Assembly: GCA_040899645.1 (NCBI GenBank)
Contig: JBBEAB010000064.1
Coordinates: 14,164 to 68,865 of the forward strand
Source of the DNA: Steroidobacteraceae bacterium
GTDB lineage: Bacteria > Pseudomonadota > Gammaproteobacteria > Steroidobacterales > Steroidobacteraceae
Reading direction: 5' to 3'
Length of the DNA stretch: 54,702 nt
Shown here: in pieces, positions 3,117 to 36,578 of the stretch
How positions within the stretch are numbered: the stretch's first letter is position 1
Layout: each line of letters begins with the position of its first letter
Notes under the pieces: generated by a model
Seen by the model: the letters and a program-made list of their open reading frames with translations, nothing else
The model's database searches: none
What the model was told of the DNA's origin: nothing
Made by a program: the position numbers and the translations under genes

Positions 3117-5387
<2,271 letters not shown>

Positions 5388-5393
5388 GCCCGC

Positions 5394-7583: not shown

Positions 7584-7674
7584 GGCTATCAGTGTAATCC
7601 GGGCGCCCGGCAGGTACCGCGGCACGCTGCAAACGGCTACCATTCGCCTCCCGCCGGCTGCGCAGGGGCCTGAC

Positions 7675-16848: not shown

Positions 16849-19800
16849 GTGCCTGTGGAAGTCCGGGGCATCGCATTGCTGAAGATGCTCGCGATTGCGG
16901 CCGGCTATTTTGCCGCTGCCGAGCTGGCGCGCTGGCTGGCGGTAGCCGGCGGTGCTGCCGTGCCACTGTGGCCGGCGGCCGGCGTGGCGCTCGCCGGGCT
17001 CCTGTTGTGCAGCGTGCGTTGCTGGCCGGGTGTCTGGCTCGGCGCGTTCGCATCGGACCTGCTGCATCGCGCGCTCATTCCCGGCCAGGAACTGACGCCC
17101 GCGCTGGCATTGCTGCCGGCTGTCATCGCCTTCGCCGCCTCGCTGCAGGCGCTGGCCGGCGCCTGGCTGACACGCTCGTTAATGCATGCCGCCGTGCCGC
17201 TCGGATCGCCAGCGGATGCGCTGCGTTTCCTGCTGCTCGGCGGTCCGGTCGCCTGCCTGGTTGCGGCGAGCATTGCCTTTGCTGCACAGGCGGTGCTCGG
17301 CGGGCTCGCGCCCGCCGGACAACAGGTGCGCTGGCTCGACTGGTGGGCGAGCGACGTCATTGGCGTGCTGCTGGTCGCGCCGTTGATCTTCGTGCTGTTG
17401 CCGGGAGTGCAGACTGCGCGGCGCTGGCGGGCGCTGCAGTTTCTCGTGCCCCTGCTCGTCACGGCCGCGTTGATCGCGGGTGCGCAGATCTGGCTCGAGC
17501 GCGCGGAGAATGCCGCACTGCGGGCGCGGGCCCAGGCGGAAATGGAAGAGGCATTCGAACTCGGCACGCGCAGCCTGCCGTTCGACGTCGAGGCGCTGCA
17601 TTCGATTGAGCGGTTGTTCGCCGCCAGCGACCAGGTCTCGCGGCAGGAGTTCGAGACCTTCACGCAACGCGCGGTGGCACAGCCCGGCGTGCAGGCCATC
17701 GAGTGGGCGCCACGGGTCCTCGCGGCCGGCCGCACCGCATTCGAAGCGGAACTCGCAAGCGAGGGCCGTGCGGACGGTGGGATCCGTGCCGTCACCAACG
17801 GCAGGGGCGAAGCGATCGGCGCGGTGGCGGGCGCCGAGCTGTACTTCCCGGTTCGCTACGTCGTGCCGGCCGATCGGCTGAGTTCGCGCCTCGGACTCGA
17901 TCACTATTCCGAGCCGCAACGTCGCCGGTCGATGGAGCGCGCCATCGATACCGGCGCGGCCAGCGGCACGCCGCTGCAGGTGTTTGTCACGACGCAGCGT
18001 CCGGCGATCCTGGTATTCGTGCCCGTGTACCCGCGTGGATTCGAGCCGACGCTTGCGTCGCAGGTACAGCGCCGCGAGCGCTTGCGCGGATTCGTGCTGG
18101 CCGCGTACGACATCGAGGCAGTCCTGGCGACGCTCGCCGGCGAGGCCGCGCGGCGCGGCCTGCGTTACTGCGTCACGGACGTGACGTCGGATGAACTGCC
18201 GACGCTGATTGCGGGCAGGCTGGCCGACCATGCCTCTGCGTCACTGTTCCTGAATCGCGAGGTCGAGTTCGTCGGGCGGACCTGGCGTATCGAGCTGCAG
18301 GCAGCAGAGGCCGCGTGGTTGCCGTCGGAAAGCTGGCAGGCGAGGCTGCTGCTCGCCGTCTCGCTGTTCGCGGCCCTGCTCGTGGCCTTCACCACGCTGA
18401 CCGCCGCCGGCCGCACGGCCAGCGTGACGAGCGAGGTCGATCAACGCACGGCGGAACTGGCACGGGAACTGGCCGCCCAGCGCGCGGCCGAGGTCGCGGC
18501 GCGCATCAGCGAACAGAACCTTGCCGTCACGATGGACTCGATCGGCGATGCAGTGCTGGCGACCGACGTCGCGAGCCGCATCACGCGCATGAATCCCGTT
18601 GCCGAGCGCCTGACCGGCTGGACCCAGGCCGAGGCGCTCGGCCGGCCGATTGAGGACGTCCTCCGCATCATCAAAGAGAAATCCCGGGAGCCGGCGGTGA
18701 TTCCGGTGGCGGAGGCGCTGCGCACCGGGATGGTCCAGGGGCTGGCAAACCATACGACGCTGATCGCGCGCGATGGCACGGAGTACCCGATCGCGGACAG
18801 CGCGGCGCCGATCCGCGACGCCGACGGCGCCATCATCGGCGTCGTGCTCATCTTCCGCGACGTCTCGAAGGAGCGCGCGGCAGTCCGCGCACTGGCGCAC
18901 AGCGAAGGGAAATACCGCCGCTTCGTCGAGCTGGCGCCGTTCGGCGTCTTCGTCAATGCCGGCGGCCACTTCGTGTTCGCCAATCCGAAGGCGCTCGAGA
19001 TCCTGGGCGCGCGTTCATCGGCCGACGTCATCGGCCGCCAGGTAATCGATTTCGTGCACCCGGACAGCCAGCAGGCGGTGCGCAAGCGGATCCGGCTGCT
19101 GTTCGAGCAACGCGAGTCCGTGCCGGCGCTCGAAACGAGGTGGGTGCGCGTCGACGGAAGCACGATCGATTGCGAGACGATCGCCGTGCCGCACGAATAC
19201 CGTGGCCGACCGGCGGCGCTCGTGATGATTCAGGACGTCACGGCACGCAAGCAGGCCGAGCAGCAGCGCGACCGCTTCTTCGAACTGCCAGTGGACATGT
19301 TGTGCGTCGCCTCCACCGACGGCTACTTCAAGCGCCTCAACCCGGCATTCAGTGCGACGCTCGGGTGGTCGATCGAGGAGTTGCTGGCGCGGCCGTTCAT
19401 CGAGTTCGTCCACCCCGATGACCGCATTGCAACGGGCGCGGAGGTGGAGCGGCTGACCTACGGGCAGCCGACCTTGAATTTCGACAACCGCTACCTGTGC
19501 AAGGACGGCTCCTACCGGTGGCTGTCGTGGAAGGCGCAGCCACAGCCCGACGAGGGTCTGATCTACGCGACCGCCCGCGACGTCACCGAGAACAAGGCGA
19601 TGGAGACCGCGCGCGAGCGCCTGACCGAGGAACTCGTGCACGCCCGCCGGGACGCCGAGCAGGCGAATCGCGCCAAGTCGCAGTTTCTCGCGACGATGAG
19701 CCACGAGATACGCACGCCGATGAACGGCGTGATCGGCATGGTCGACGTGCTGCAGCAGACCAGCCTGCGCGGCTACCAGGTCGAGATGGTGGACCTGATC

Positions 19801-21606: not shown

Positions 21607-22811
21607 CAGATCAGGCCACGCTGCGGATCCTGGTGCTCGACGACGAGCCGCTGATGCTCGTGCTGCTGGACCGCATGCTGACGAATCTCGGCTTCCGCAA
21701 CGTGACGACCTTCGGGCGCGGAAGACAGGCGCTTGACTGGCTGCAGGAAACCGCCAATACCGCTGACCTGATCGTGCTCGACCTCAACATGCCGGAAATG
21801 GACGGCGTCGAGTTCCTCAGAAACCTGGTCGCATTGCAGTTCACCGGCGGCGTCATCCTGGCGAGCGGCGAGGACGAGCCGATCCAGCAGGCTGCGGAGA
21901 CGCTGGTGCAGGCGCACCGGATTACCGCGCTCGGTCACCTGCACAAGCCGGTCCAGCCACAACAGCTTGGCGCACTGATCGACAAGTGGCGGCCGGGCAT
22001 GCTTCAGGCGACGCGCGGCGCAACGCAGACCTACCCGTCGGCGGAAGTCGGCCGGGCCATCAGCAACCGCGAGCTCGTCAATCATTACCAGCCGAAGGTG
22101 TCGGTCGCGACCGGCCAGGTGGTCGGCGTCGAGACGCTGGTGCGCTGGCAGCATCCCGTGGATGGCCTCGTGTACCCGGACCGGTTCATCGGCGTCGCCG
22201 AGGAACATGGTCACATCAATGGCCTGACGCAGGTCGTGATCGACGCCGCAATTGCGCAGGCGCGGTCGTGGATGGACCAGGGAATCAAGCTGCAAGTCAG
22301 CATCAATGTCTCGATGGACAATCTGGCGACACTCACGTTTCCGGATGTCCTCGCGCGGCAGGCAGAGCGCGCGGATGTGCCGGCTACGAACATCGTGCTC
22401 GAGGTTACCGAGAGCCGGCTGATGTCGAAGATCGTCACCGTGCTGGACGTATTGACCCGGCTGCGATTGAAGCGGTTCCGCCTGTCCATCGACGACTTCG
22501 GCACCGGGCATTCGTCGCTCGCGCAACTGCGCGACATTCCGTTTGACGAGCTGAAGATCGACCGTGGCTTCGTCCACGGTGCCGCGGGCAACGACAAGAA
22601 GCGCGCGATCTGCGAGGCGAGCCTCGGACTGGCGCGCCAGCTGGGCATCGTCGTCGTCGCCGAGGGCGTCGAGGACCTGGAGGACTGGCGCTTCCTGCGC
22701 AGTGCAGGCTGCGATTTCGCGCAGGGCTATTTCATCGCCAAGCCGATGCGCGGCGACGAACTGCCGGCATGGCTCGATACCTGGGCGGAGCGGGTCCGTG
22801 CGGGGTTCTGA
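21603..22811 (+). CDS. response regulator with EAL domain (c-di-GMP phosphodiesterase)
   Basis: REC domain (LRILVLDDEP...LDLNMPEMDG) fused to an EAL domain (ELVNHYQPKV, EVTES, DDFGTGHSSL). The ATG overlaps the kinase stop (ATGA). Confidence 0.9.
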   Translation: MTDQATLRILVLDDEPLMLVLLDRMLTNLGFRNVTTFGRGRQALDWLQETANTADLIVLDLNMPEMDGVEFLRNLVALQFTGGVILASGEDEPIQQAAETLVQAHRITALGHLHKPVQPQQLGALIDKWRPGMLQATRGATQTYPSAEVGRAISNRELVNHYQPKVSVATGQVVGVETLVRWQHPVDGLVYPDRFIGVAEEHGHINGLTQVVIDAAIAQARSWMDQGIKLQVSINVSMDNLATLTFPDVLARQAERADVPATNIVLEVTESRLMSKIVTVLDVLTRLRLKRFRLSIDDFGTGHSSLAQLRDIPFDELKIDRGFVHGAAGNDKKRAICEASLGLARQLGIVVVAEGVEDLEDWRFLRSAGCDFAQGYFIAKPMRGDELPAWLDTWAERVRAGF

Positions 22812-24558: not shown

Positions 24559-25746
24559 TTGCCGGTTGAATTCCTGATTTTCGGGCTGGCGCTCGCGGGC
24601 GTCGCCATTCTGCACCGCCATGCGTTGCCGATCGCGGCCACCGGGCTCGCTTGCATCGTCGCCTTCGAGTGGCTGGTCACGCAGTTTCCGACCGGCCCGG
24701 GGGGCGCGGGCCTTGCGGAGCACTTCGCGCACGAGTGGGTGACGCTCGTCAACCTGCTGTGCCTGCTGGTCGGCTTCGCGATGGTCGCCGCGCACTTCGA
24801 GAAGAGCGGGATTCCGGCCGCGCTGCCGCGCTACCTGCCGGACGACTGGACCGGCGCGTTTGCGCTGCTCGCGATCGTGTTCCTGATCTCGGGCTTCCTC
24901 GACAACATCGCCGCGGCCCTGATCGGCGGCGCGATGGCGCACACGCTGTTCCGTGGGCAGGTTCGGGTCGGCTACCTGGCGGCAATCGTCGCCGCCTCGA
25001 ATGCCGGCGGCGCGGGCAGCGTGATCGGCGACACGACGACGACCATGATGTGGATCCAGGGTGTGTCGCCGGCCGAAGTGATCCATGCCTACCTGGCATC
25101 GGCCGCTGCGCTGCTCGTGTTCGGGCTGTCGGCCGCGCGCCAGCAACAGCGCTTTGCCACGATCGTGCGCGACGCAGACGAGACGCAATCGATCGACTGG
25201 CTGCGCGTGTTGATCGTGGCTTTCGTGCTGGCAAGCGCAGTCACGGTGAATGTCTTCGTCAACCTGCGCTACCCCGAACTCGCGGACCGCTTCCCGTTCA
25301 TCGGTGCGACCGTCGCCATGAGCTTGCTCATGACTATCGGCATCCGCCAGCCGGACTGGCGGGCGCTGCCCGCGGCTTTCAAGGGCTCGATCTTCCTGCT
25401 GTGCCTCGTGGCGTCGGCGTCGCTGATGCCGGTCGAATCGCTGCCGGCGGCATCCTGGAAGACGGCGCTGGCGCTCGGCTTCGTCTCGGCCGGCTTCGAC
25501 AACATCCCGCTGACCGCGATGGCGCTGCAGCAGGGCGGTTATGACTGGGGCGTGCTGGCCTATGCCGTCGGCTTCGGCGGCTCAATGCTGTGGTTCGGCT
25601 CCTCCGCGGGCGTCGCGATCTGCGGCATGTATCCAGAGGCGCGCTCCACCGACCGGTGGCTGCGCGAGGGCTGGCTCATCCCGGTCGCCTACCTGGCTGG
25701 TTTTGCGTTGCTGCTGCTGGCACTCGGCTGGCAGCCGGGCGGCTGA
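24559..25746 (+). CDS. ArsB/NhaD-superfamily membrane permease (NhaD-like antiporter family)
   Basis: About 12 predicted TM segments with Gly-rich repeats typical of the ion-transporter superfamily. TTG start immediately after the aminoacylase stop. Confidence 0.65.
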   Translation: MPVEFLIFGLALAGVAILHRHALPIAATGLACIVAFEWLVTQFPTGPGGAGLAEHFAHEWVTLVNLLCLLVGFAMVAAHFEKSGIPAALPRYLPDDWTGAFALLAIVFLISGFLDNIAAALIGGAMAHTLFRGQVRVGYLAAIVAASNAGGAGSVIGDTTTTMMWIQGVSPAEVIHAYLASAAALLVFGLSAARQQQRFATIVRDADETQSIDWLRVLIVAFVLASAVTVNVFVNLRYPELADRFPFIGATVAMSLLMTIGIRQPDWRALPAAFKGSIFLLCLVASASLMPVESLPAASWKTALALGFVSAGFDNIPLTAMALQQGGYDWGVLAYAVGFGGSMLWFGSSAGVAICGMYPEARSTDRWLREGWLIPVAYLAGFALLLLALGWQPGG

Positions 25747-26464
25747 CCCGGTTCCAGGCCGCCCGCAGGTCGGTCTCCGCGCGATGCAAGTGCCGCCAGG
25801 GACGCTCGACGCGATGCTGTACGAGCCGTTCGAGCAGTCTGCGGGTTGCATCCGCGCCGAGTCCATAACCCGCGATCCACTGCGCGCAGCCCTCCAGTGG
25901 CCGCATGCGTTCGATCGTGCGCAACATGTCGAGCAGGTCGAACATCGCCGGTCGCGTGCCAACGATGTCGGTTGCGAAGCGGCAGCCATGCGCCAGATCA
26001 ATCAGATGGTACGTGGGCGAATACAGGGCGGGCGTTTCGACCAGGACGTTTGCCGGATAGAAGGCGCCGTGCGAGATCCCACACTCGTGCATGCGGCGCG
26101 CCAGCAGGAAGAGTGGCGCGAGATCGGGCGGCTGCGCGCCTGCGCGCAGCAACCAAGCGAGCGGCGCGGCCCCGGCGATTTCGCGTGTTGCAAGTATCTC
26201 GTGGAGACCGTGTACGCGGCTATGCCCGTGCGACCACCAGAGGGGCTCCGGGCACGAAACGGCGTGCTCGCGTAGTCGCGCCAGCAGTCCAAATTCCCTC
26301 GCCACGCGATACGGCACCGCCAGGCGGCGCAACGGATCATGGAGCGACCGGTGCCGATACATCTTGACGACCGCACGGCCGCCGCCGGCAAGCGGCTCCG
26401 ACCAGATCAGGGTCGTCGGCTCGGCCTTGATCAGCGCGTGATCGTATGTGTCGTAAGCGGTCAT
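25676..26464 (-). CDS. Kdo / lipopolysaccharide kinase (InaA/KdkA/WaaP-RIO-like) family protein; catalytic loop reads HGAFYPAN (no Asp)
   Basis: Kinase-like architecture with a catalytic-loop-like HGAFYPANVLV and a metal-binding-like LIDLAHG. The ATG overlaps the methyltransferase stop (ATGA). Its 3' end overlaps the convergent permease by 71 nt. Confidence 0.6.
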   Translation of the reverse strand: MTAYDTYDHALIKAEPTTLIWSEPLAGGGRAVVKMYRHRSLHDPLRRLAVPYRVAREFGLLARLREHAVSCPEPLWWSHGHSRVHGLHEILATREIAGAAPLAWLLRAGAQPPDLAPLFLLARRMHECGISHGAFYPANVLVETPALYSPTYHLIDLAHGCRFATDIVGTRPAMFDLLDMLRTIERMRPLEGCAQWIAGYGLGADATRRLLERLVQHRVERPWRHLHRAETDLRAAWNRVSRPAASRVPAAATQNQPGRRPG

Positions 26465-27345
26465 GATGCGCGATCCCTCTCCTTGAGGATCAGCGCGTAG
26501 CGGTGACCGGAACCGATCCGCGAGAGCGGCGGGGCGGCAACGAGATGCGCGCCGTTCTTGCGGGCAATTTCAGCGACCCGCGCGGTCGTCATTGTCATCT
26601 TCGGCTCCTTGCGATTGAAGGGCCGACGCAGACGCCGAAAGATGTTTTTCAGGGAGTGGTGGTCGAAGTAGGTGACGATGACGAAGCGGCGCGAGACGCG
26701 CAACAGTTCCTGCAGCAGGCGTTCGCGTTCGGCTGCGGTTGGCAGGTGATGGGAAAGCCGGACACAGATCGTTCCGTCTACGGCATTGTTGCTCAGCGGG
26801 ATATGAAAGGCGGAGGCCGTCATCCAGGTCCGCGGCGTGGCGACATTCGAAGCGATTCTGCCGTAGAGGACCTGGCCGAGCCCGATGTCAGCCTCGATGA
26901 TGCGTTCGGCCGCATCGGCGAATGCGGGCGTCAGTCGACCGCCGCCGCAGGGCAGGTCGAGGATGATCCCGGACCGGCCCAGCCGGCGCATGTGGCGGCC
27001 GATGAGACGAAACTCGCGCCGCGTGCTGCTGCGTTTCAGAACCTGCCGCTGGTATTCGAGGTTGTAGGCCGCGGCTCGTTCGACGCGCTGGTATTCCGCC
27101 TGATAGCCCGCGCTCTGCTCCAGATCCTGCGGCTTGTCCCAGGTTTCGGAGGTGCCGGCAATCGCGAGCAGCGGCACGCCATCGCGCATGGCAAACCGGC
27201 TGGAACAGCGGGGGCAATGAATGGAATCGGTTTCGATCGCCAGCGGCCCGCGGCAGGCAGGGCAGGCCAGGAGATCGGCGATCGCTGCGAGATCGCCGTT
27301 GCCGTGCTTCGACCCGGTCGCCGCAACCGCATTCGATGAATTCAT
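26461..27345 (-). CDS. class I SAM-dependent methyltransferase with N-terminal Trm112-like zinc ribbon
   Basis: CPACRGPL...HCPRCSSRF zinc ribbon followed by SAM motif I (ILDLPCGGGRL). The start was set at the internal Met (27345), not the ORF-track start at 27399. Confidence 0.75.
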   Translation of the reverse strand: MNSSNAVAATGSKHGNGDLAAIADLLACPACRGPLAIETDSIHCPRCSSRFAMRDGVPLLAIAGTSETWDKPQDLEQSAGYQAEYQRVERAAAYNLEYQRQVLKRSSTRREFRLIGRHMRRLGRSGIILDLPCGGGRLTPAFADAAERIIEADIGLGQVLYGRIASNVATPRTWMTASAFHIPLSNNAVDGTICVRLSHHLPTAAERERLLQELLRVSRRFVIVTYFDHHSLKNIFRRLRRPFNRKEPKMTMTTARVAEIARKNGAHLVAAPPLSRIGSGHRYALILKERDRAS

Positions 27346-27399
27346 GCGCAACGCCCATTCCCCGGCCTGTTCCGGGTTGGACGGACGCTGCCGGGGCAA

Positions 27400-28401
27400 T
27401 CAACCGGCGGGCGGGGCCCGGGCCTCCTGGCTGCTGACGAGGATGCGGCCATCCAGCACGATGGCGCGCACGCGCGTGGTTGCGAGCACGGCATCGAGGG
27501 CCTGCCGCGGCGTCAATCCGGCGATGGATCCGTGCAGTACCACGCCTGCCGCCTCGCTGGCGATTTCGGGCGTCACATAGGCGACTTCGCAACCGAGCTC
27601 GCGCGCGGCCCAGGACAGGAAGTCACGCAACTGCAGGCCTTCGATGGCGATGCCGGGGCTGGTCCCGGCAACCCAATCCCAGGATTCGCCGTAGGGTGTC
27701 GCCGCCGCGCGCTGCACCTCACCATCGTCGGCGATCGTGAGTTGTTCGCCGGTGACACCGTGTTCGCGACGTCCTGACTTTGACTGCCACTCGACGCGGC
27801 CCTCGCGCACGCGCAGCCGCAGCTTTGATCCCACGAGTCGCGCTTCGTACTGCGTGCCGACATGCCGCACGGCACCGGCCGACGTGACGACCACGAGATC
27901 TTCAGCGGCCGCATCGCCGCGCCCTGCATCGACATACAACGCGCCGCGCTCCAGCGTGATCTCGTCCGGCGCCGTCAAAGCGAGGCGCGTGTCATGGTCG
28001 AGCCGGACCGAGATGCCATCCCGCAAGCTCAGTGCGCTGCGGCCGGCAGGACCGGTCTCGAGCGTCGTCCCGGTCATCAGCGCCTGTCCCGTGGCAGTTG
28101 CCCGCCAGCGCGCGAAGCGTCCCTGCCGGGCGCGCACCTCGCCGGAGGCCAGTGCCAGGGTCGCGGCAGTTTCGGTTGATCCGCCGAACGGCGGTGCGAC
28201 CATCCAGGTGCCGATGGCCGCCGCCAGTACGCTGGCGGCAAGCGCAAATGCCACGCGCCGCTGGCGGCGGCGGCTCTCGTTCGCGACCACGGCGCGCCAT
28301 TCGTCACGCAGGCGCTCACGCATCGCCCGCTCGAATCCGGCGTCGGGCTGTTCACGCGGTCCCGCGGCCTTCAGTACCCGTTCGATATCCTTGTCATTCA
28401 T
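27400..28401 (-). CDS. FecR-family anti-sigma factor / transmembrane sensor
   Basis: N-terminal cytoplasmic anti-sigma region, a single TM (VAFALAASVLAAAIGTWMV) and a periplasmic FecR domain. It lies 9 nt downstream of the ECF sigma gene. Confidence 0.8.
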   Translation of the reverse strand: MNDKDIERVLKAAGPREQPDAGFERAMRERLRDEWRAVVANESRRRQRRVAFALAASVLAAAIGTWMVAPPFGGSTETAATLALASGEVRARQGRFARWRATATGQALMTGTTLETGPAGRSALSLRDGISVRLDHDTRLALTAPDEITLERGALYVDAGRGDAAAEDLVVVTSAGAVRHVGTQYEARLVGSKLRLRVREGRVEWQSKSGRREHGVTGEQLTIADDGEVQRAAATPYGESWDWVAGTSPGIAIEGLQLRDFLSWAARELGCEVAYVTPEIASEAAGVVLHGSIAGLTPRQALDAVLATTRVRAIVLDGRILVSSQEARAPPAG

Positions 28402-28410
28402 GTCGGATCC

Positions 28411-29043
28411 TCACGCGCCGAGGCTTGCGGCGATGTCGCCGGCCTCGGCGCCGAACACTTGCTCCAGTGCTTCGCGAAAGGCGATGCGCGCCCGCGCCAG
28501 CAACGACTGCGCGGCGATCGTGCTGATTCCCAGGCGTTCACCGATGAACTCGACCGAATGTCCCTCGATGTATTTCAGCTCGAGCGCATCGCCGTAATTG
28601 GCGGGCAGGCGATCGAGCACCGCGCGTACCAGGCGGCCGACCTCCGCGCGCCCGTGGCTCTTGACCAGGTCGTACTCCTCGGACGCCTCGACTGATTCGA
28701 TGGCGACACGCAGCTCGGGCTGGTCGTCGATCAGCACGACATGCCTGGATCGCCGCTGCGAGCGGATGTGATCGACCACCTCATGGCGACAGATCTGGCA
28801 GATCCAGGTGAACAGGCCGGACTCGCCGCGGAAGTCCGCGATCTTGCGCATGGCCTTGGTCAGAGCGGACTGTACGACTTCCTGCGTTGCCTCGATGTCG
28901 CCATTCAGTCGCGGCAGGGCGAAGCGGTACACGCGCGCGAAATACGCGTTGAAGAACGCTTCGAACGCCCGCTCGTCGCCCGCGAGCATGCGCCGGATGA
29001 GCTGCTGGTCTTCTGGCAATGCCTGGTCCACGTGGCGGGACAC
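28411..29043 (-). CDS. ECF (sigma-70 family group 4) RNA polymerase sigma factor
   Basis: Region 2 (FEAFFNAYFARVYRFAL) and region 4 (ELKYIEGHSVEFIGERLGISTIAAQSLLARAR). GTG start at 29043. Confidence 0.85.
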   Translation of the reverse strand: MSRHVDQALPEDQQLIRRMLAGDERAFEAFFNAYFARVYRFALPRLNGDIEATQEVVQSALTKAMRKIADFRGESGLFTWICQICRHEVVDHIRSQRRSRHVVLIDDQPELRVAIESVEASEEYDLVKSHGRAEVGRLVRAVLDRLPANYGDALELKYIEGHSVEFIGERLGISTIAAQSLLARARIAFREALEQVFGAEAGDIAASLGA

Positions 29044-29782
29044 TATCCGGTGGTGGGACGTTGGCGCGAGCGGGAATCAATCGCGCGGGGTCCGTGGCCC
29101 GTGATTCTAGCAGTACGCGGTAAAGGGCCAGCAGCAGGAACCAGTCGATAGCGGCTGCGGCGAGATCGTGAGACAGGAAGTGGGCGCCGCGCGCCTGCTG
29201 GCCGAACGAATAAAGCATGCCGATCCCGATTGCCGCGGCCAGCGCGCCTCGGGCGAGGCGCGGACGCGCGCCGAGCAGCACGAAATAGAACGACATCAGT
29301 GCAAAGCCCGAGGATGCGTGCGAGCCTGGATAGCAGCGCCCGCGAGGCAGCGAATCCGGCCGGTCCGCCAGCAGCGACACGTAGGGGCGCTCGCCACCAT
29401 AGCGGCGGAGGTCGCGCGGACAATCCACGTTCGAAACCTGCTTCAACGCCCCGACCGCTGCCGTGCAGAGGATCAAGCTTGCGGCGACGAATGCGGCGCC
29501 GCGACGCAGGGGCCGCAGCCGCGGTACGACATGCCCGGCGGACAGGACGCCGAGCGAGGTGAGGCCGATCAGGCGCACGAACAGGGCGCCTCCGGTGTGG
29601 ATGGCATCCACCGCCCACCAGGTATCGGCCCCGATCCAGGCTCCAGCCGCCTGGTCATAAAACCAGGCGTCGGCGATCCGCAGATCAAGATGCCCCGCCG
29701 CGACCACGAGCGATGCAGCGAGGATCGCCACGCCCGGGATCCACGCATGGCTCCGCCAGAATTGCTGCCGTTCCAGTGACAT
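28781..29782 (-). CDS. PAP2-family (type 2 phosphatidic acid / lipid A phosphatase-like) membrane protein
   Basis: PAP2 motifs KQVSNVDCPRD, YPGSHASSGF and SRxxxxxHxxxD (GAHFLSHDL) with multiple TM segments. The ATG shares 1 nt with the upstream Omp85 stop (TGATG). The reading frame has no stop until 28781 and therefore overlaps the sigma gene by 262 nt; the true C-terminus is uncertain. Confidence 0.65.
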   Translation of the reverse strand: MSLERQQFWRSHAWIPGVAILAASLVVAAGHLDLRIADAWFYDQAAGAWIGADTWWAVDAIHTGGALFVRLIGLTSLGVLSAGHVVPRLRPLRRGAAFVAASLILCTAAVGALKQVSNVDCPRDLRRYGGERPYVSLLADRPDSLPRGRCYPGSHASSGFALMSFYFVLLGARPRLARGALAAAIGIGMLYSFGQQARGAHFLSHDLAAAAIDWFLLLALYRVLLESRATDPARLIPARANVPPPDSVPPRGPGIARRPAAHPAHARGRRAGVRSVLQRVFRARVPLRPAATEWRHRGNAGSRTVRSDQGHAQDRGLPRRVRPVHLDLPDLSP

Positions 29783-31434
29783 CAAAAGCTGCGCTTGGTC
29801 TGGATCAGGAGCTGCGCCCGATTGAGCGACCGGGGCCCATCGAGCGGGAAAGCGACGTCGATGTGCAGCACATTGCCGCGTGCGGTGCGTGTGCTGCCGA
29901 GCCGCAGGCCGATGCCGATGTCCTTGAGCAGGCCCAGGTCGGCGGTCGGGCCGAAGGCGGAGTCGCCCCAGCTGCATCCCATGTCGAAGAAGACGGCGCC
30001 GCCAATGTCGGCGAGCTTCCACAGCGAGCGATTTGTGTAGTAGCGCTGCTCGAGCGTGAGGAGGGCGCGACTGCTGCCGTTCTGGTAGCGCAACGGGTAA
30101 CCGCGCAGGCCCGTGTCGCCGCCGATCGTGAGTTCGTGGTCGGCATCCAGCGCGTGACCTAGTTCGCCGCCCAGGGCCGCGAAAAAGGTGCTGCGCGGCC
30201 CTGTTTCACGGTAGTAGCGCACGCCGCCCGCCAGCAGGCCGTCGGCCAGCGCGCCGTGTTCGATACGGCCGCCGAGCGTGCCCTGGACAAACAGGGATTG
30301 CCGATCGCCGAAGCGGTAACCGCGACTCGCCTCGGCGCGCAACAGCACTGCACTGCGGTCGGCGCCAAAGGCCGCATCGGCCAGGCCGAGTTCGATGGCG
30401 TAGCGCAAGCCGAAATGCAGGTCCTCCGTGCGCTCGATCTGGTCACGATTGCGCACGGTCTCGAAATCATCCTGCACGCTCTCCAGGCGCAGGAACGGAT
30501 AGTCGAGCCGGCGGTTTTCCGGCAGCGTGAATGGTGCGGTCTCGCCCGGCGCCAAATTGAACGCTGCCTGCTCGTGGCGCAGGCCGAGCACGATGCGGCG
30601 CGTCCAGCCATCCTGCAGGCCGCGCGACCAGCCGAAGCGCAGCTCGGCACGGTCCTTGTCCTGGCCATAGGCGGCGATCGCCTCGCCCAGGCGGTAGACC
30701 TGCTCGACCGAGTCTTCCTGCGCGAATTCGAATCCGGCACTCCACCGGGTGTCGAGCGAATAGAACGGCCGCTCGAGGGCGACGAAGATGCCGGCGCCGT
30801 CGTCGCTGTCGCGCAACGCCAGCTCGCTGCGCCAGCGACTGCCCCAGACATCCGGGTCGCGCCATCGGACCGTATAGGAACTGCGATCAACATCGCTCGA
30901 GTAGTCGACCGCCAGGTGCTTGCCGAAGCCGAACAGGTTGAGTTCCTCGAGCTGGATGCCGGTCGAGTTCTCGCCGCCGCTGCGGCCGAAAGAGATGCCC
31001 GGGCTAGTGCTCCAGACCTCGTGCGTGATGACCTCGAGGTCCACCAGCCCATCGCGATAGCCGACGATGCGGATTTCGGGTTCGCGGATGAAGCGGAGCT
31101 CGCGCAGGTTGCGCGCGGTTTCGTCGATGCGCCGCCGGGAGTAGAGGTCGCCCGGCCGGAACAGCAACTGGGACTCGATCACTGAGTCGCGGGTGTCGAT
31201 GTGAACCCGGTCGGCAAGCCGGTAAATCGCCTTGCGCTCGCCTTGCGCGTCGGGGTCGAAGATCGGGCGTTCCTGGACGGTCACGGTGCCGATGCGCGTG
31301 CCGCGCGCTTCGAGCTCGGCATCGTCGGGCCAGGCTGGCGCAAGCACGGGACCTGTTCCCGGGTTGTCCGCCGCGGCGGCTGCAGCCGTGAAGGCCAGCA
31401 GCAGCACGCCGGCGAGTCGAATGCCTTGGCGCAT
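29782..31434 (-). CDS. Omp85/BamA-TamA family outer-membrane protein (bacterial surface antigen D15 domain)
   Basis: Signal peptide MRQGIRLAGVLLLAFTAAAAAA, a POTRA-like N-terminus and a C-terminal beta-barrel (GGDTGLRGYPLRY...NVLHIDVAFPLDG...LLIQTKRSF). The ATG overlaps the upstream stop (ATGA). Confidence 0.75.
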   Translation of the reverse strand: MRQGIRLAGVLLLAFTAAAAAADNPGTGPVLAPAWPDDAELEARGTRIGTVTVQERPIFDPDAQGERKAIYRLADRVHIDTRDSVIESQLLFRPGDLYSRRRIDETARNLRELRFIREPEIRIVGYRDGLVDLEVITHEVWSTSPGISFGRSGGENSTGIQLEELNLFGFGKHLAVDYSSDVDRSSYTVRWRDPDVWGSRWRSELALRDSDDGAGIFVALERPFYSLDTRWSAGFEFAQEDSVEQVYRLGEAIAAYGQDKDRAELRFGWSRGLQDGWTRRIVLGLRHEQAAFNLAPGETAPFTLPENRRLDYPFLRLESVQDDFETVRNRDQIERTEDLHFGLRYAIELGLADAAFGADRSAVLLRAEASRGYRFGDRQSLFVQGTLGGRIEHGALADGLLAGGVRYYRETGPRSTFFAALGGELGHALDADHELTIGGDTGLRGYPLRYQNGSSRALLTLEQRYYTNRSLWKLADIGGAVFFDMGCSWGDSAFGPTADLGLLKDIGIGLRLGSTRTARGNVLHIDVAFPLDGPRSLNRAQLLIQTKRSF

Positions 31435-33413
31435 CAGCGGTTTCGCGCGAGTCGCGCAGGTGGTTGCGGGGTGCCGGAAGGCTGATAGCGGCGCTCTTCG
31501 AACAGCTCGTAAGCGGTCTGGAAGTAGGCGATGCCCAGGCGCTCCAGGTCCGGGTCATGCGGTACCGACGAGTAGTGGTCCGTGACCGGATCGTAGCGGT
31601 AGGTATTCACGGACTTCTTGAGGCCGAAGACCACGATACGACCGTCGCGATAGATCGCGACATCGTGATTGTGGTTGAACAGCGCGACCCGATGCTCCGC
31701 TGGCGTCGACAGGGCATCCTGGCCAAAGAACGGCGCCTCGTAAGGCAGACCGAGCAAGCCGAGCACGGTCGGCGCAAGGTCGATCTGCGTCATCAGGTCA
31801 TCGACGCGCCGTGGCTCGATGTGCTTCGGTGAATAGATCATCAGCGGAATCTCGTAAGTCTTCAGTGGGATCTGTTCTGCTCCATAGACGCGTGCGCCAT
31901 GATCTGCAGCGACGACGAAGATCGTGTCGTCGAACCAGGCGTGGCCACGGGCATCGGCCAGGAACTTGCCGAGTGCATAATCGGCATAGCGCACGCCCGC
32001 CACCCGACCACCGCCCTCGGCCAGGATGCCGAACTGCTCGAGTCCCGGGCGGAACGTGAACGGCTTGTGGTTCGAGGTCGTCATGATGATCGAGAAGAAT
32101 GGCTTGCCGGTTGCGTGCACCGCATCCAGGTAGCCGAGCGAGTGATCGAACAGGTCCTCGTCGCTGACGCCCCAGATGTTCTCGAAGCGCACGGACTGGA
32201 TGTCGTTGCGGTCCTGCGTTTCAAAGCCGTTGCTGCCAAAGAAGTAATTCATGTTGTCGAAATATCCGTAGCCGCCATACAGGAAGCTCGTGCGGTAGCC
32301 GAGCGAACGCATCACGGCGCCCCAGGTTGCCACGTGTTCGTTGCCGGGACGGCGCAGGATGGAGACGGTCGGGATCGGCGGAATCGAACTGGTGAATGCC
32401 TCGAGCCCGCGCACCGTGCGGGTGCCGGAGGCATAGGCATTCGAGAACCAGAGGCCCTGCTGCGCGATGGCATCGAAGTTCGGCGTCAGGTCGCGATCCG
32501 ACCCGTAGAGCCGGCTGAACTCGGCGCCAAAGGATTCACTCGAGACGAGCACGACATTGAGCCGCCCAAGACCGCCTGCGCGTGCCGGGTAGGCACGGTC
32601 GAGGCGCCCATCCGGGAGGTGGGTGAGCCGGCCACCACCGCGTTTCAGTTCTCGGGCGATGAGCGCGAAGTTCTCGGTCCGGTCTGCGCTGCGATAGTTT
32701 GCGTAGTAATCGATCTCGTTGGTCGTCGCGGCGCGCACGAAACTACTGATGCCGTTCTGCACCAGTTCGTTGGCGACGCGATTGGACGCGACCGAAAGTG
32801 CATCGGTGGGCCAGTAGCCGATCGCCAGGCAAACCGCGGCCGCGTGCAGCGCCAGCGGCTTCAGGCGATGGCGCACTGCGACGGCCGCATGACCGACATC
32901 CCACGACCGGCGCTGAATCCACCAGAGCCCCGCGCTGGCCAGCATGCCGGCGCAGGCGACGACCAGCACGACCGGGTATTCGGCCCATACATCGCCGGCA
33001 ACCTCGGTTGGATAGGCCAGGTAGTCGAAAGCAACCAGGTTGAAGCGGGCGTCGAATTCCTCGAAAAAATAGAACTCCGCAACCGCCAGGAAAGTCAGGC
33101 CGAAGAGCGTGAGCCAGCTGCCGATCGCGAGCACGACGCGATTGGCCTGCGACCGGTACCAGCGGTCCGGCAGCAGTGCCGTGTAGATTGCGAGCGGCGC
33201 GAGCAGGTAGAGCGCGACGACGGCGTCATTCAGCAAGCCACCGGCCAGAATGGCGGGCAATGCCGCCGCCCCGACCCCGGCGGCGATGCCGAACTTCCAC
33301 CAGAGCCAGGCGCGCGAGAACGCGCCGAGCAGCACGGCGGCGGCGCCCAGTCCGAGCAGCAGGCGAAATCGTTGCAGCACGACGGATTGGACGGTCTGCG
33401 CCGCCCGGATCAA
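31434..33413 (-). CDS. LTA-synthase / sulfatase-family membrane protein (LtaS/MdoB/EptA-like phospho-group transferase)
   Basis: Five N-terminal TM helices followed by an extracytoplasmic alkaline-phosphatase-superfamily domain (VVLVSSESFGAE, GTRTVRGLEA, MTTSNHKPF, VVAADHGAR). TTG start at 33413; a GTG 33 nt downstream is an alternative. Confidence 0.75.
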   Translation of the reverse strand: MIRAAQTVQSVVLQRFRLLLGLGAAAVLLGAFSRAWLWWKFGIAAGVGAAALPAILAGGLLNDAVVALYLLAPLAIYTALLPDRWYRSQANRVVLAIGSWLTLFGLTFLAVAEFYFFEEFDARFNLVAFDYLAYPTEVAGDVWAEYPVVLVVACAGMLASAGLWWIQRRSWDVGHAAVAVRHRLKPLALHAAAVCLAIGYWPTDALSVASNRVANELVQNGISSFVRAATTNEIDYYANYRSADRTENFALIARELKRGGGRLTHLPDGRLDRAYPARAGGLGRLNVVLVSSESFGAEFSRLYGSDRDLTPNFDAIAQQGLWFSNAYASGTRTVRGLEAFTSSIPPIPTVSILRRPGNEHVATWGAVMRSLGYRTSFLYGGYGYFDNMNYFFGSNGFETQDRNDIQSVRFENIWGVSDEDLFDHSLGYLDAVHATGKPFFSIIMTTSNHKPFTFRPGLEQFGILAEGGGRVAGVRYADYALGKFLADARGHAWFDDTIFVVAADHGARVYGAEQIPLKTYEIPLMIYSPKHIEPRRVDDLMTQIDLAPTVLGLLGLPYEAPFFGQDALSTPAEHRVALFNHNHDVAIYRDGRIVVFGLKKSVNTYRYDPVTDHYSSVPHDPDLERLGIAYFQTAYELFEERRYQPSGTPQPPARLARNR

Positions 33414-33431
33414 TCGGTCCGGCGTCCGGCC

Positions 33432-35750
33432 TCAGAACTGCCAGAGCACGCCGATTGATGGCACCAGTGGCAGCCAGTCGCTGCGGCGCGTCCTGAAGTT
33501 CACGCCGCCGGCGCCGTCGTCTTCGGCGATCAGCTCCGAGCAACAGGTATTGCCGATGTTGACCGCATTGCTCAGCTCGATGGTGAACGCCAGATTGCCG
33601 ACCGACAGTGGCCGCCGGTACTCGGCGCGCAGGTCGAGCGTCGCACGCGTCGGAAACCGCGCGGCATTGCGAGCGCCAAGCGCGTCGTTCTGCAGGCGCG
33701 TCGTTGGCCAGCCGCCATGTGAACCCACGACCGCGCCGAAACGCCAGGGTCCCTGCGACCAGTCAACGCCGGCACTCGCAGCCCAGGTCTGGTCCCAGCT
33801 GCGCGGCACATGACGCCCGCTGACCTTGTCCAAGGCTTCGGACCAGCTGAGGCCCAGCCACCACGTGAGCTCGCGGCGCTCCGCGATCACCGAGAACTCC
33901 GCGCCCTGCGCTTCGGCCGCAACGGGCGCGACCATCACCCGGTCCGGTGCGATCTCCGGTATCAACGTCAGCGGATCGAGCAGATTCTCGAAGTGCGGAC
34001 GCGGCTCGGACTGGAGCTTGCGAAACAGCTCGAGTCGCAGTGCCAGGCCACCCTGCAGGCGGTGATCGACGCCGACGATCCAGTGTTCCGAGCTTTGCGC
34101 TTCCGGGAAAGCGGAGAGGCCGTCTTCGACCTTCAGTTCGTGCACTTCGTCGGTCTGGTGAAAGCGGCCCCAGTGTGCGCGCAGCTGGGTCGCCGGCCCG
34201 AGCTGCCAGAGCAGGTTGAGCCGCGGGTCGTAGAGCCAGCTCTCTGCAGTCGTGCCGGAGGTGATGGTTCGCTGCGCCCGCAGCCCGACTTCCGATGTCA
34301 CCGAATCCGTGACCCGCCAGCGGTGCGCGGCAAAGAGCGCCACGCGTTCGCGCTTCGGGGCGAGCTCGATCGCGCGCGAAAGCGTCGGCGCTCGCCCGAA
34401 AAGGCCAGCGACGGCATCGGAGTAAGCCGCAGCCGCTGAGTAGTCGTAGTCTGCATCCTCGGTCGTCCATTCGAATCCGGCTTCGAACCAGTGACGCGAC
34501 TGCGGTTGCCAGGTGGCCCTGCCACGCAGTTCCCGGTAGTCCGATGAGCGATCGTCGATGACCGAACCGGTGGCGATGCCCGGTTTGTCGATGCTGCCGA
34601 CGCGGGAACTTTCCACACTGCTGTCACCAAGCCACAGGGACGCCGCTACGCCGTTCTCCCAGGCGCGATCGGCGCGCAGCCACAGGTATCGATTACGACT
34701 CTCGATCTGGGCCACCTCGCCCTGGCCTTCGCGGGAAATCGACAGTTCATCGCGCGACCACAGTAGGTTGGCGGTCACCCGCAGGCGGTCCTCGGTGCCA
34801 AATCCTGCGCGGGCATAGACGTCCGAGTAGGTCGGGCTGCCGGCGTCGTGCGCAAATGCCTCGATGAACGGCTTCAGCGTGCCGACCCGGCCGGCGGCCA
34901 GCCAGTCGGCGTCGAGTGCGTCCAGCGTGCCGCCGCGGCGCGCCATCGCGTTGAAAACGGAGAGGCCGAGCGCGTTGCGCGGTTCGCCGGTGGCCCCGAT
35001 CGTTCGCAGGTCGAAGACGCCGCCCATGCGGTTGCCGTAGCGGACCGGAAAGCCACCGGTATAGATCTCGGCAACATCGATCAGCCCCGGATCGAGCACG
35101 CCAAATACGCTCTGGTAGCCCGGGATATGAAATGCCTGGCGCAGCGGAAAACCATCCAGCAGCGTCAGTTGCTCGCCGGTTTCGCCGCCGCGAATGCTGG
35201 ATTGGGCGGAGAGGCTGGTTTGCGCGATGCCGGGCAATCGGCCGAGCGCACGGATCGCGTCCTCGCCGATGACCGGCTGTGCGGCAATCATCTCACCATC
35301 GACATGCACCGAGCCGAATGAGCGGGTGCCGTCCAGCGCATAGCGGCTGGTCGATACCACGACCTCCGCGAGCTGCACACCCGTCAGTGGCCGCGCGTCG
35401 GCCGCGTCGATCGACTGGCCGTCCCCGTTGCGCCGATCTGCGTCGCCGGTTGCGGTCACCACCGCATAAAGCCCGGGGCGTACCGCGGACAATGCGAGTC
35501 CATGCTCAACGAGGATCTCGCTCGCGATCTCCAGTCGATTGGCCGAGCGCGGCTCCGCAAGGACGCGCAGCGTCGCGGGCACCAGTTCGGAGCTGTAGAT
35601 GAAATCGATTCCCGTGTCGCGCAGCTCGATCAGCACTTCGACGACCGGCCGGCCGGCGTAACGCGGCTCGTCCGCGCCGGCGGGCATCAGCGGGGCGATG
35701 ATGCAGACGAAGAGGGCGCCGAGGATGAACCGGCGAAAGCTTCCGACCAT
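33432..35750 (-). CDS. TonB-dependent transducer (TonB-dependent receptor with N-terminal STN signalling domain)
   Basis: Signal peptide, an STN-like domain (VEVLIELRDTGIDFIYSSELVPATLRV...GLYAVV), a TonB box/plug (LAEVVVSTSR), a 22-strand barrel and a terminal F. Confidence 0.85.
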   Translation of the reverse strand: MVGSFRRFILGALFVCIIAPLMPAGADEPRYAGRPVVEVLIELRDTGIDFIYSSELVPATLRVLAEPRSANRLEIASEILVEHGLALSAVRPGLYAVVTATGDADRRNGDGQSIDAADARPLTGVQLAEVVVSTSRYALDGTRSFGSVHVDGEMIAAQPVIGEDAIRALGRLPGIAQTSLSAQSSIRGGETGEQLTLLDGFPLRQAFHIPGYQSVFGVLDPGLIDVAEIYTGGFPVRYGNRMGGVFDLRTIGATGEPRNALGLSVFNAMARRGGTLDALDADWLAAGRVGTLKPFIEAFAHDAGSPTYSDVYARAGFGTEDRLRVTANLLWSRDELSISREGQGEVAQIESRNRYLWLRADRAWENGVAASLWLGDSSVESSRVGSIDKPGIATGSVIDDRSSDYRELRGRATWQPQSRHWFEAGFEWTTEDADYDYSAAAAYSDAVAGLFGRAPTLSRAIELAPKRERVALFAAHRWRVTDSVTSEVGLRAQRTITSGTTAESWLYDPRLNLLWQLGPATQLRAHWGRFHQTDEVHELKVEDGLSAFPEAQSSEHWIVGVDHRLQGGLALRLELFRKLQSEPRPHFENLLDPLTLIPEIAPDRVMVAPVAAEAQGAEFSVIAERRELTWWLGLSWSEALDKVSGRHVPRSWDQTWAASAGVDWSQGPWRFGAVVGSHGGWPTTRLQNDALGARNAARFPTRATLDLRAEYRRPLSVGNLAFTIELSNAVNIGNTCCSELIAEDDGAGGVNFRTRRSDWLPLVPSIGVLWQF

Positions 35751-35765
35751 CCCTTTATTAAAAGC

Positions 35766-36452
35766 CTAGTCGGCGCCGACTGCCACTGCCGGATGCGCAA
35801 ACTGGCGGCGCGATTCCAGCCAGGCCCAGAGCGCATTCCACTGGTGCAGTTCCGGGTGCACGCGTGCCGGATTCATGTCGTGCAGGCCGAGACCCTGTTC
35901 GCCGGCAAAGACGTAGCTCTGCGAGTCCCGGAGCGTGGTAATCACCGGAATCTGCATCTGGTCCAGGAAACGCATCAGCGTGCGGAAGATGATCGTGTTC
36001 GGCTTGACGCGGTTGGCGATGACCCCGAGCCGGTTCTCGCGGCGCTTGATCTTGCCGGAAATCAGCAGGTGGCCGATGCAGCGCGAGCAGGCGTGGATGT
36101 CGGCATCGGAGGGCATCACGGGCACGAGCACCGCGTCCGCATCGCGCACGTGCTCGATGAACTGCGGCGGCTGCAACGCGGCCGGCGTGTCCACGATCAC
36201 ACGGTCGGTGCCGGGCGGGATACGCAGCTGGAAGCTCCGCGTCACGCCGATGGTGCGCGCGTAGGCGGCAATGCCGTGGATGGCGGGGCGCTCCTGTGGG
36301 CGCTTCTCGAGCCAGCGCGAGCTCGTGCCCTGCGGGTCGAAATCCATCAGCGCCGGCCGGTAGCCACGCGCCGCGTACATCGCGGCGATGCCGGTCGCAA
36401 TCGTGGACTTTCCCGAGCCGCCCTTTGGATTGAGCAGGACAATACGCAACAT
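35766..36452 (-). CDS. ParA/MinD-like P-loop ATPase (orphan)
   Basis: Deviant Walker A motif (LNPKGGSGKST). 228 aa. Sits 15 nt upstream of the transducer gene. Confidence 0.75.
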   Translation of the reverse strand: MLRIVLLNPKGGSGKSTIATGIAAMYAARGYRPALMDFDPQGTSSRWLEKRPQERPAIHGIAAYARTIGVTRSFQLRIPPGTDRVIVDTPAALQPPQFIEHVRDADAVLVPVMPSDADIHACSRCIGHLLISGKIKRRENRLGVIANRVKPNTIIFRTLMRFLDQMQIPVITTLRDSQSYVFAGEQGLGLHDMNPARVHPELHQWNALWAWLESRRQFAHPAVAVGAD

Positions 36453-36578
36453 GGCACCCCCGCGCCCAACCCCGAGACTACGCCGCGACCTCGATCAGGG
36501 CAAGGCAGCCAGGTTGCGGCTCGCCACCCGGGCCAGGCGCTTATACTGGCGGAATTCGCTGGTTTATTAAGGTGTTAG

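Follow-up and report, generated by a model that had tools for sequence, protein, structure and literature searches.

A cell-surface-signalling cluster with lipid-A-type enzymes and an Omp85 paralogue in Steroidobacteraceae: a candidate ECF-controlled regulon for outer-membrane remodelling

The locus and its genes

The stretch of DNA analysed here, the window, comprises 54,702 nucleotides (nt; 67% G+C) of contig JBBEAB010000064.1 from a soil bacterium of the Steroidobacteraceae (assembly GCA_040899645.1, positions 14,164 to 68,865). It holds a cluster of nine genes in which the three components of a cell-surface-signalling (CSS) system, namely a TonB-dependent transducer, a FecR-family anti-sigma factor and a sigma factor of the extracytoplasmic function (ECF) type, stand among genes for an LtaS/OpgB-like enzyme of the sulfatase fold, an Omp85-superfamily protein, a PAP2 phosphatase, a methyltransferase, a Kdo/WaaP-family protein and a ParA-type ATPase (Table 1). 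On one side the cluster is bordered by a divergent type-II NADH dehydrogenase gene, on the other by a convergent gene for an NhaD-type antiporter.

An earlier note on this DNA, made from the sequence alone, had described nine co-directional genes packed with start-stop overlaps and short gaps, and this layout is borne out. All nine open reading frames (ORFs) lie on the minus strand, TGATG/ATGA overlaps are seen in the sequence at 31434, 29782 and 26464, and the remaining gaps measure 9-54 nt, the shortest being the 9 nt between the sigma and FecR genes. The LtaS-like gene probably starts at GTG 33380 and the methyltransferase gene at ATG 27345. The LtaS-like product in the NCBI record has 648 amino acids (aa) and is 100% identical to the window protein; the window Omp85 and LtaS-like proteins are likewise 100% identical to proteins of a Steroidobacteraceae metagenome-assembled genome. 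Pfam and NCBIfam back all nine of the families named in the earlier note, with amendments that include the following: the STN domain is recognised by fold only, the PAP2 frame is corrected, and the supposed kinase lacks a catalytic Asp.

The PAP2 frame runs from 29782 to 28781 with no stop before the sigma start at 29043, and it overlaps the sigma gene by 262 nt in a different frame (28781-29043). The conserved domain of the protein reaches to about residue 235 (...LLES); the sigma promoter lies in the tail beyond. PAP2-sigma overlaps of 50-314 nt occur in relatives L001, L002, L003, L009 and L011; distant PAP2 genes stop normally. A 191-aa ORF at 29618-29043 was rejected as the PAP2 gene, having no family match.

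Table 1. Genes and sequence elements of the cluster, in window coordinates, listed in the direction of transcription
Feature	Coordinates	Strand	Remarks
Sigma-70-like promoter, TTGCCC-N17-TAGTCT, upstream of ParA	36475..36503	-	Position kept in 12 relatives
ParA/MinD-type P-loop ATPase (ParA/CbiA)	36452-35766	-	Pfam CbiA
TonB-dependent receptor-like transducer, 772 aa	35750-33432	-	Signal peptide, STN-fold N-terminal domain, Plug, barrel
STN/N0-fold signalling domain of transducer (residues 31-100)	35451..35660	-	Predicted structure
ECF-type promoter 1, CGATTGAT-N15-CGTCCAA	33387..33416	-	Before LtaS-like, Omp85 and PAP2 genes
Sulfatase-fold LtaS/OpgB-like enzyme, 648 aa	33380 (GTG) to 31434	-	ORF opens at TTG 33413
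Omp85-superfamily protein	31434-29782	-	
PAP2 membrane phosphatase	29782-28781	-	
Extended -10-like element, TGCTAGAAT	29104..29112	-	Conserved upstream of the ECF -35 of the sigma promoter
ECF-type promoter 2, CGATTGAT-N15-CGTCCCA	29054..29083	-	Before sigma-fecR, within PAP2 tail
ECF sigma factor, 210 aa	29043-28411	-	
FecR-family transmembrane anti-sigma factor, 333 aa	28401-27400	-	
ECF-type promoter 3, CGGTTGAT-N15-CGTCCAA	27377..27406	-	Across FecR stop codon, before methyltransferase gene
Trm112-like zinc ribbon and class I S-adenosylmethionine-dependent methyltransferase, 294 aa	27345 (ATG) to 26461	-	ORF from 27399
Kdo/WaaP-family kinase-fold protein	26464-25676	-	

ECF-type promoters within the cluster

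The pattern CGRTTGAT-N15-CGTCC, with at most one mismatch allowed, has three matches in the 54.7-kb window (33416-33389, 29083-29056 and 27406-27379), all of them in the cluster, where 0.18 would be expected by chance. This pattern was partly shaped on the same three sites, and independent tests of the motif therefore weigh more. Promoter 2 appears to be the autoregulatory promoter of sigma-fecR. Relatives L005, L007 and L010 have lost PAP2 and retain the TGCTAGAAT element, which may be a basal sigma-70 promoter for sigma-fecR. At the head of the cluster, the transducer gene starts 15 nt after ParA without an ECF motif between them, and the sigma-70-like promoter upstream of ParA probably drives both genes. 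In the distant loci described below, the transducer instead lies downstream of sigma-fecR, behind the autoregulated promoter.

With three ECF motifs and the sigma-70-like promoter of ParA, the cluster divides, as far as its promoter sequences indicate, into four or more transcription units, and a single sigma factor links three of these. The earlier note had named internal promoters or terminators as evidence that would undo its reading. Scanned for consensus sequences, the interior of the cluster shows neither a sigma-70 consensus promoter nor an excess of terminators; the three ECF-type motifs do lie within it. Rfam matches in the window are limited to two distant tRNAs.

Effector genes often start 4-9 nt past the -10 element (window 33372-33393, minus strand; L013-L017, L029), and GTG 33380 of the window lies 6 nt past CGTCCAA. 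This spacing suggests that the effector mRNAs are leaderless or near-leaderless.

The signalling triad

The transducer matches the Pfam Plug and TonB_dep_Rec_b-barrel models and belongs to a narrow family, with 248 matches in 5.8 billion proteins. Its two forms differ in whether a CarboxypepD_reg domain stands between the STN-like domain and the Plug; relatives have this extra domain. Some transducer homologues are named cobalamin or iron receptors by JGI. The assignment of an STN-type signalling domain, made in the earlier note, holds for the fold and fails for the sequence: Pfam STN stays unmatched in the transducer with thresholds relaxed to E<=1-10, and ten aligned transducer N-termini, searched as a sequence profile against the PDB, gave no match either. 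Because these sequence searches were empty, structure prediction was needed. Residues 31-100 form a conserved domain modelled by AlphaFold2 with a predicted local distance difference test score (pLDDT) of 93-95, and the best Foldseek matches of the N-terminal model are N0 domains of secretins, signalling domains from PupB, FecA and FoxA, and the C-terminal domain of PupR. The E-values are weak (0.004-0.6) and the match set is coherent; target-normalised TM-scores reach 0.5-0.6 against the free-standing signalling domains of PupB, PupR and FecA. The N-terminus is accepted here, at these weak E-values, as a predicted STN-fold signalling domain.

The other two components are recognised directly. 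FecR matches its Pfam family at 5.2e-12, and its C-terminal part carries a weak STN-like match (E 0.039). The sigma factor matches Pfam Sigma70_r2, Sigma70_r4_2 and Sigma70_ECF and scores 79 bits on the NCBIfam sigma70-ECF model, above the cut-off of 42.9. By analogy with characterised CSS systems, the transducer would signal to FecR.

Envelope enzymes and the Omp85 paralogue

The LtaS-like protein matches Pfam Sulfatase at 5.6e-47 and combines this fold with an N-terminal multi-helix membrane domain. Its best PDB match is 3lxq, the uncharacterised Vibrio protein VP1736 (E 3.4e-67), followed by LtaP and LtaS. The metal-binding Glu and the Asp-His pair align with LtaS/LtaP; at the nucleophile position stands the Thr of GTRT, one residue out of register in the LtaS alignment. 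Scores of 63 and 53 bits on the respective NCBIfam models, where the equivalog cut-offs stand at 970 and 572, speak against orthology to LtaS or OpgB and for a family-level relative. The earlier note had asked whether the enzyme might cluster with arylsulfatases proper. That assignment does not hold: the nucleophile region reads SGTRTVRG, no formylglycine motif (CxPxR or C/S-x-P-x-R) was seen in the translation, and arylsulfatase models give marginal partial matches only.

A link to lipid A comes from sister loci. There, a gene X with EptA_B_N and Sulfatase domains occupies the slot of the LtaS-like gene, and in L020, L070 and L029 it scores 564-569 bits on NF028537 (phosphoethanolamine--lipid A transferase; cut-off 500). 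Loci L014 (Omp85-LtaS-PAP2) and L015 (Omp85-EptA-PAP2) differ only in the middle gene. On these grounds the LtaS-like enzyme might substitute chemically for EptA. The PAP2 protein passes its Pfam model (3e-10; 40.4 bits against a cut-off of 27.2), and of the NCBIfam models it comes closest to 'PAP2 family lipid A phosphatase' (1.2e-22) and PAP2_near_MCR1 without reaching the cut-off of either. A PAP2 relative in L041 also matches LpxF (4e-06). A PDB sequence search with the window PAP2 was empty.

The chief competing explanation keeps the same wiring and moves the chemistry to periplasmic glucans or another envelope polymer, the candidates being osmoregulated periplasmic glucans (OPGs; modified by OpgB/OpgE as in E. 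coli), exopolysaccharide or surface proteins. The window enzyme is of LtaS/OpgB type, with homologues that JGI names 'phosphoglycerol transferase MdoB-like', and the OPGs of E. coli receive both phosphoglycerol (from OpgB) and phosphoethanolamine (from OpgE), a pairing that mirrors the LtaS/EptA alternation seen here. Against this stand the sister EptA, which reaches 564 bits on the lipid A transferase model and only 185-217 bits on EptB and 107-129 bits on CptA; the PAP2 proteins, nearest to lipid A phosphatases and LpxF; and the cluster itself, which has no opgGH-type glucan synthesis genes. We consider such a change of substrate unlikely.

The Omp85 protein was called Omp85/TamA-like in the earlier note, and the superfamily assignment stands while orthology does not. 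The protein matches the NCBIfam BamA region (5.6e-14) and, weakly, Pfam Omp85. Its AlphaFold2 model (pLDDT 84.9) has one POTRA domain and a 16-strand-type barrel, and Foldseek places TamA and BamA at the top (12-15% identity, E 1e-15 to 1e-13). An L6-type motif, GLRGYP, the counterpart here of the superfamily's (V/I)RG(Y/F), is invariant. BamA or TamA orthology is ruled out by an NCBIfam score of 51 bits against 297 and by the lack of a TamB gene nearby.

Gene neighbourhoods in relatives

A genome scan with the window Omp85 yielded 80 loci, mostly from Steroidobacteraceae and related Gammaproteobacteria, and four more came from protein look-up, giving 84 in total. Loci that share the ndh...nhaD synteny form the close clade, and their gene content varies. 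All nine genes are present in L001, L011, L081 and L082, and L002, cut at its 5' end, has the last seven. L005 and L006 hold ParA, Omp85, the methyltransferase and the Kdo-like gene, L004 has only ParA and Omp85 of the cluster genes, and other versions lack LtaS/PAP2 or the transducer. Short remnants with a TGCTA(A/C)GAT element are kept where PAP2 or sigma-fecR has been deleted, at the Omp85-sigma or Omp85-methyltransferase junctions of L005, L007 and L010. From this retention it follows that content variation in the close clade arose by precise deletions around promoter elements.

The earlier note had treated the nine genes as one unit, and in this it does not hold up. Besides falling into four or more transcription units, the cluster includes three genes (ParA, the methyltransferase and the Kdo-like gene) that only the close clade has and that stay there even where sigma, FecR and the transducer are gone. 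ParA is absent from all distant modules and has no adjoining ParB-like gene in the window. It matches Pfam CbiA (1.7e-16) with a Walker A motif (KGGSGKS) and scores 112 bits on NCBIfam ParA_partition (NF041546), below the cut-off of 180. ParA is probably a syntenic neighbour outside the regulon.

The association of the triad with Omp85 and lipid enzymes, in contrast, co-occurs in relatives despite rearrangement, as the earlier note would require. Among the 68 more distant Omp85 loci, sigma and FecR are present in 18 and the full triad in 17, and 16 of the 18 also hold PAP2, an LtaS-like gene or EptA. The orders differ: transducer-FecR-sigma may face Omp85-LtaS-PAP2, PAP2 may face sigma-FecR-transducer-Omp85-X, or the genes may run PAP2-Omp85-sigma-FecR-transducer-X (X being EptA). 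In L041, from the cultured Peristeroidobacter soli JW-3, the order is FecR-sigma | transducer-Omp85-PAP2. Distant triad loci are scattered across several clades of the Omp85 tree.

These neighbourhoods also bear on whether the Omp85 paralogue, and not lipid chemistry, is the main effector, the cluster then serving an outer-membrane stress or biogenesis response, an alternative insertase or an export pore with the lipid enzymes as accessories. Omp85 is the most constant partner of the triad, often with a promoter copy of its own; the transducer adjoining Omp85 is the commonest distant arrangement, and the BamA/TamA-like fold retains the conserved L6 motif. Yet a lipid enzyme accompanies nearly all distant sigma-FecR loci, each enzyme gene can carry its own promoter copy, and neither a TpsA-like or autotransporter substrate gene nor a TamB-like partner lies nearby. 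An Omp85-centred response is accordingly rather improbable.

The promoter motif across relatives

A two-block motif with fixed spacing lies upstream of sigma in nearly all loci that hold sigma. It reads CGATTGAT-N15-CGTC(C/T)AA in clade A, which includes the window, and GCGACGG-N~16-ACGTCTAA in clade B, with a different -35 and the same -10. ECF promoters typically have such a layout, and ECF sigma factors commonly regulate their own genes. Searched with a pattern derived from the sigma-upstream regions, 974 kb from 25 clade-A loci gave 35 matches, about 30 of which sit just upstream of a sigma, LtaS-like, Omp85 or methyltransferase gene. Of the 22 clade-B matches, 19 precede sigma, PAP2, Omp85 or EptA, and in L070 one copy stands ahead of each of these four genes. 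Promoter 1 has a counterpart before the LtaS-like gene in L001, L002, L081, L082, L085 and L086, and sites akin to promoter 3 lie at the same junction in L001, L002 and L011. Two loci retrieved through the LtaS-like protein have no sigma gene nearby, and there the motif precedes the LtaS-like and Omp85 genes.

When metagenomes were scanned with the motif alone, 80 loci came back; they hold 100 instances, 14 of these at contig ends. Regulon families follow directly behind 64: sigma (29), a T_hemolysin-like acyltransferase (20), LtaS-like (5), a TlpA-like redoxin (5), methyltransferase (2), Omp85 (2) and EptA (1). Region 4.2 of the sigma factor varies together with the -35 between clades (AAQS vs AAES), while the -10 element and region 2 are common to both. 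This covariation, confounded by phylogeny, fits direct recognition by sigma, and the motif would be read by this sigma factor. The claim that the triad is wired to envelope enzymes is thus upheld by an ECF motif found before sigma and again before the LtaS-like and methyltransferase genes, with Omp85, PAP2, LtaS-like and EptA genes added in rearranged relatives.

The same evidence addresses a plainer account, in which the triad is an ordinary CSS unit for uptake of a nutrient or siderophore that happens to lie among unrelated envelope genes, synteny without common function. The persistence of ParA, the methyltransferase and the Kdo-like gene without the triad, and the cobalamin or iron receptor names of some transducer homologues, would suit such an account. 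It is very improbable given a promoter motif common to sigma, enzyme and Omp85 genes and an association that survives many rearrangements; the cluster holds no ABC transporter, periplasmic binding protein or siderophore genes, and the window transducer gene itself has no ECF promoter.

Several loci extend the gene content found behind the motif. In L123 (1501-8638), and also in L092-L164 (metagenome loci from another branch of the sigma family), a motif-headed operon runs divergently from sigma and encodes a T_hemolysin-like acyltransferase, an AMP-binding enzyme, a heme-oxygenase-like iron enzyme, a short-chain dehydrogenase/reductase, a tetratricopeptide repeat protein, PAP2, Omp85 and EptA. 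Such an operon could encode a pathway for a lipid or small molecule that has become attached to this regulon. A gene for a TlpA-like periplasmic thiol-disulfide oxidoreductase (Redoxin/AhpC-TSA) lies directly behind the motif in L120, L124, L127, L144 and L160; in L158 the redoxin gene is divergent from a motif-preceded sigma gene, and L085 has two redoxin genes near the LtaS-like gene without a motif match of their own.

Comparison with known systems

FecA-FecR-FecI and PupB-PupR-PupI share with the window an STN-fold TonB-dependent protein, a FecR-family single-pass anti-sigma factor, an ECF sigma factor and an ECF-type promoter. Unlike in those systems, the ECF promoters of the window head envelope enzymes and an Omp85 paralogue rather than an uptake system, the transducer gene follows ParA without an ECF promoter, Pfam STN is silent, and the sigma factor scores best on RpoE-like models. 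The fecIR genes are under Fur control, whereas sigma-fecR of the window appears positively autoregulated.

In PUMA3 (VreA-VreI-VreR) of Pseudomonas aeruginosa, VreA has no barrel, and the genes controlled are those of Hxc secretion, PdtA/PdtB and phosphate starvation. The window differs in having a full-length TonB-dependent receptor (Plug and barrel) and a BamA/TamA-like Omp85 with one POTRA. What PUMA3 offers by way of comparison is a CSS system with a non-iron-uptake regulon that takes in one Omp85-superfamily protein, of TpsB type (PMC2729926).

The pairing of a PAP2 phosphatase with a membrane transferase of the alkaline-phosphatase superfamily is also found in LpxE/EptA of Helicobacter pylori and in mcr-1/pap2. 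Those pairs carry out lipid A 1-dephosphorylation followed by phosphoethanolamine addition, and their expression is constitutive or under two-component control. Here the transferase is of LtaS/OpgB type without EptA_B_N, PAP2 scores below curated cut-offs, control is of CSS/ECF kind, and an Omp85 gene is always included. PmrAB/PhoPQ of Enterobacteria (eptA, arnT) has the same proposed outcome, signal-dependent decoration of lipid A phosphates, through a histidine kinase and response regulator instead of an outer-membrane transducer, anti-sigma factor and ECF sigma factor; the present cluster has no arn genes. LtaS/LtaP of Gram-positive bacteria and OpgB/MdoB of E. coli resemble the window enzyme in their multi-helix N-terminus and extracytoplasmic sulfatase fold. 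The window enzyme differs from them in being closest to VP1736, in its low family scores and in its genomic partners, PAP2 and Omp85.

The literature searched contains no description of a CSS/ECF system controlling eptA, PAP2 or an Omp85 paralogue, and nothing of relevance came from searches on the gene combination, on 3LXQ/VP1736 or on eptA together with FecR. Contexts with PAP2, Omp85 or a sulfatase go unmentioned in the main text of the ECF reclassification paper. The proposal that the module is previously undescribed agrees with this literature.

Proposed mechanism and points against it

The cluster is, on balance, probably a CSS/ECF regulon that remodels the outer membrane, most probably lipid A or LPS (lipopolysaccharide). 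The two parts of this reading differ in strength. The wiring of the triad to the Omp85 and enzyme genes is highly probable; lipid A or LPS as the target is a roughly even call.

In the proposed sequence of events, which for its signalling steps is modelled on Fec/Pup-type systems, the STN-fold transducer would be made together with ParA from the housekeeping-type promoter and, on receiving its signal, would act on the FecR-type anti-sigma factor, and the ECF sigma factor would then be freed. The three ECF promoters would drive the LtaS-like, Omp85 and PAP2 genes, sigma and fecR, and the genes for the methyltransferase and the kinase-fold protein, respectively, with the sigma-fecR promoter giving positive feedback. 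The PAP2 phosphatase would take off a lipid A phosphate, and the LtaS-type enzyme would add a phospho-alcohol head group (phosphoglycerol-like) to lipid A or the core, a transfer that would stand in for the phosphoethanolamine transfer by EptA in the sister modules. The single-POTRA Omp85 paralogue, as the constant member of the regulon, may serve outer-membrane proteins of the remodelled membrane, by inserting them or as their partner. Taken whole, the scheme in which a transducer-FecR-ECF sigma pathway switches on covalent remodelling of lipid A with a dedicated Omp85 paralogue, the LtaS-type enzyme being a new phospho-alcohol transferase of lipid A or LPS, is put forward tentatively, as possible but somewhat short of probable.

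A number of observations weigh against the proposal, beginning with its regulatory side. In 45 of the 84 loci the Omp85 gene stands without any other cluster gene nearby, and the motif occurs in only 2 of the 44 such loci that could be scanned upstream of Omp85. No conserved neighbours, a TamB-like gene included, were found around the 45 solo genes. Since the solo loci mostly lack the motif, the Omp85 family is not confined to this regulon. Unlike Fec, the window clade has no ECF motif upstream of either the transducer gene or ParA. The best NCBIfam models for the sigma factor are generic (PRK11922, RpoE-like) with no FecI model among the top matches, and the factor is not demonstrably a member of the FecI-like ECF groups (ECF239-243). 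Promoter function and sigma specificity, moreover, are read from sequence.

The enzymes add further points of this kind. The window has no EptA, and its LtaS-like enzyme lacks the EptA_B_N domain by Pfam. OpgB, a named relative of that enzyme, modifies periplasmic glucans, and we know of no LtaS-type enzyme that acts on lipid A. PAP2 reaches 80.6 bits on NF028538 against a curated cut-off of 275 (the best-matching family all the same), and its third motif is atypical. The methyltransferase (Pfam Methyltransf_11, Methyltransf_25 and Trm112p) has as its nearest solved relative RlmA(I), an rRNA methyltransferase (E 6.6e-6). The Kdo-like protein matches Pfam Kdo (2.6e-10; 40.5 bits against a cut-off of 21.3) and keeps the ATP-binding Lys and the DFG-type Asp, but its HGD motif has become HGA (HGAFYPxN), with Asp replaced by Ala in 11 of 11 orthologues; a PDB sequence search with it was empty. 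The protein is probably a pseudokinase, and its description as a Kdo/LPS kinase has to be given up. A WbdD-like 'methyl-phosphate capping' by kinase and methyltransferase, considered for the last two genes, was dropped because the catalytic Asp is absent.

The label of lipid-A-type modifying enzymes given in the earlier note is thus retained in part: EptA in the sister slot and the affinity of PAP2 to lipid A phosphatases speak for it, and the last two genes speak against it. For the LtaS-like and PAP2 enzymes, we infer action on lipid A or LPS in this organism.

Other features of the window

Elsewhere in the window, the gene for a 1585-aa hybrid histidine kinase (MASE1-CHASE-several PAS-HisKA-HATPase-REC-Hpt) and that for a REC-EAL phosphodiesterase behind it overlap by 4 nt (16849-22811, plus strand). 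At 3183-7682, a NirS-like cytochrome cd1 with two extra c-type cytochrome domains adjoins a second TonB-dependent receptor on the opposite strand. An 839-aa ORF at 46298-48817 (minus strand) has no Pfam match at E<=1e-4.

Significance

The system is of a known regulatory kind, CSS/ECF, with an unusual regulon and an Omp85 member. How far model bacteria resist cationic peptides and polymyxins and tolerate metals is set by modification of their lipid A, which two-component systems control. If the proposal is true, a CSS/ECF route would be a third regulatory path to lipid A modification, next to two-component systems and small RNAs, and the role of an Omp85 paralogue would be tied to the lipid state of the membrane. 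That this paralogue is constant hints that lipid remodelling and the assembly of outer-membrane proteins are connected, and the LtaS/EptA swap points to a new enzyme activity. Under a CSS/ECF route, a signal bound at the cell surface could reprogramme the outer leaflet directly. With the motif defined, the regulon can be predicted in any genome of this group.

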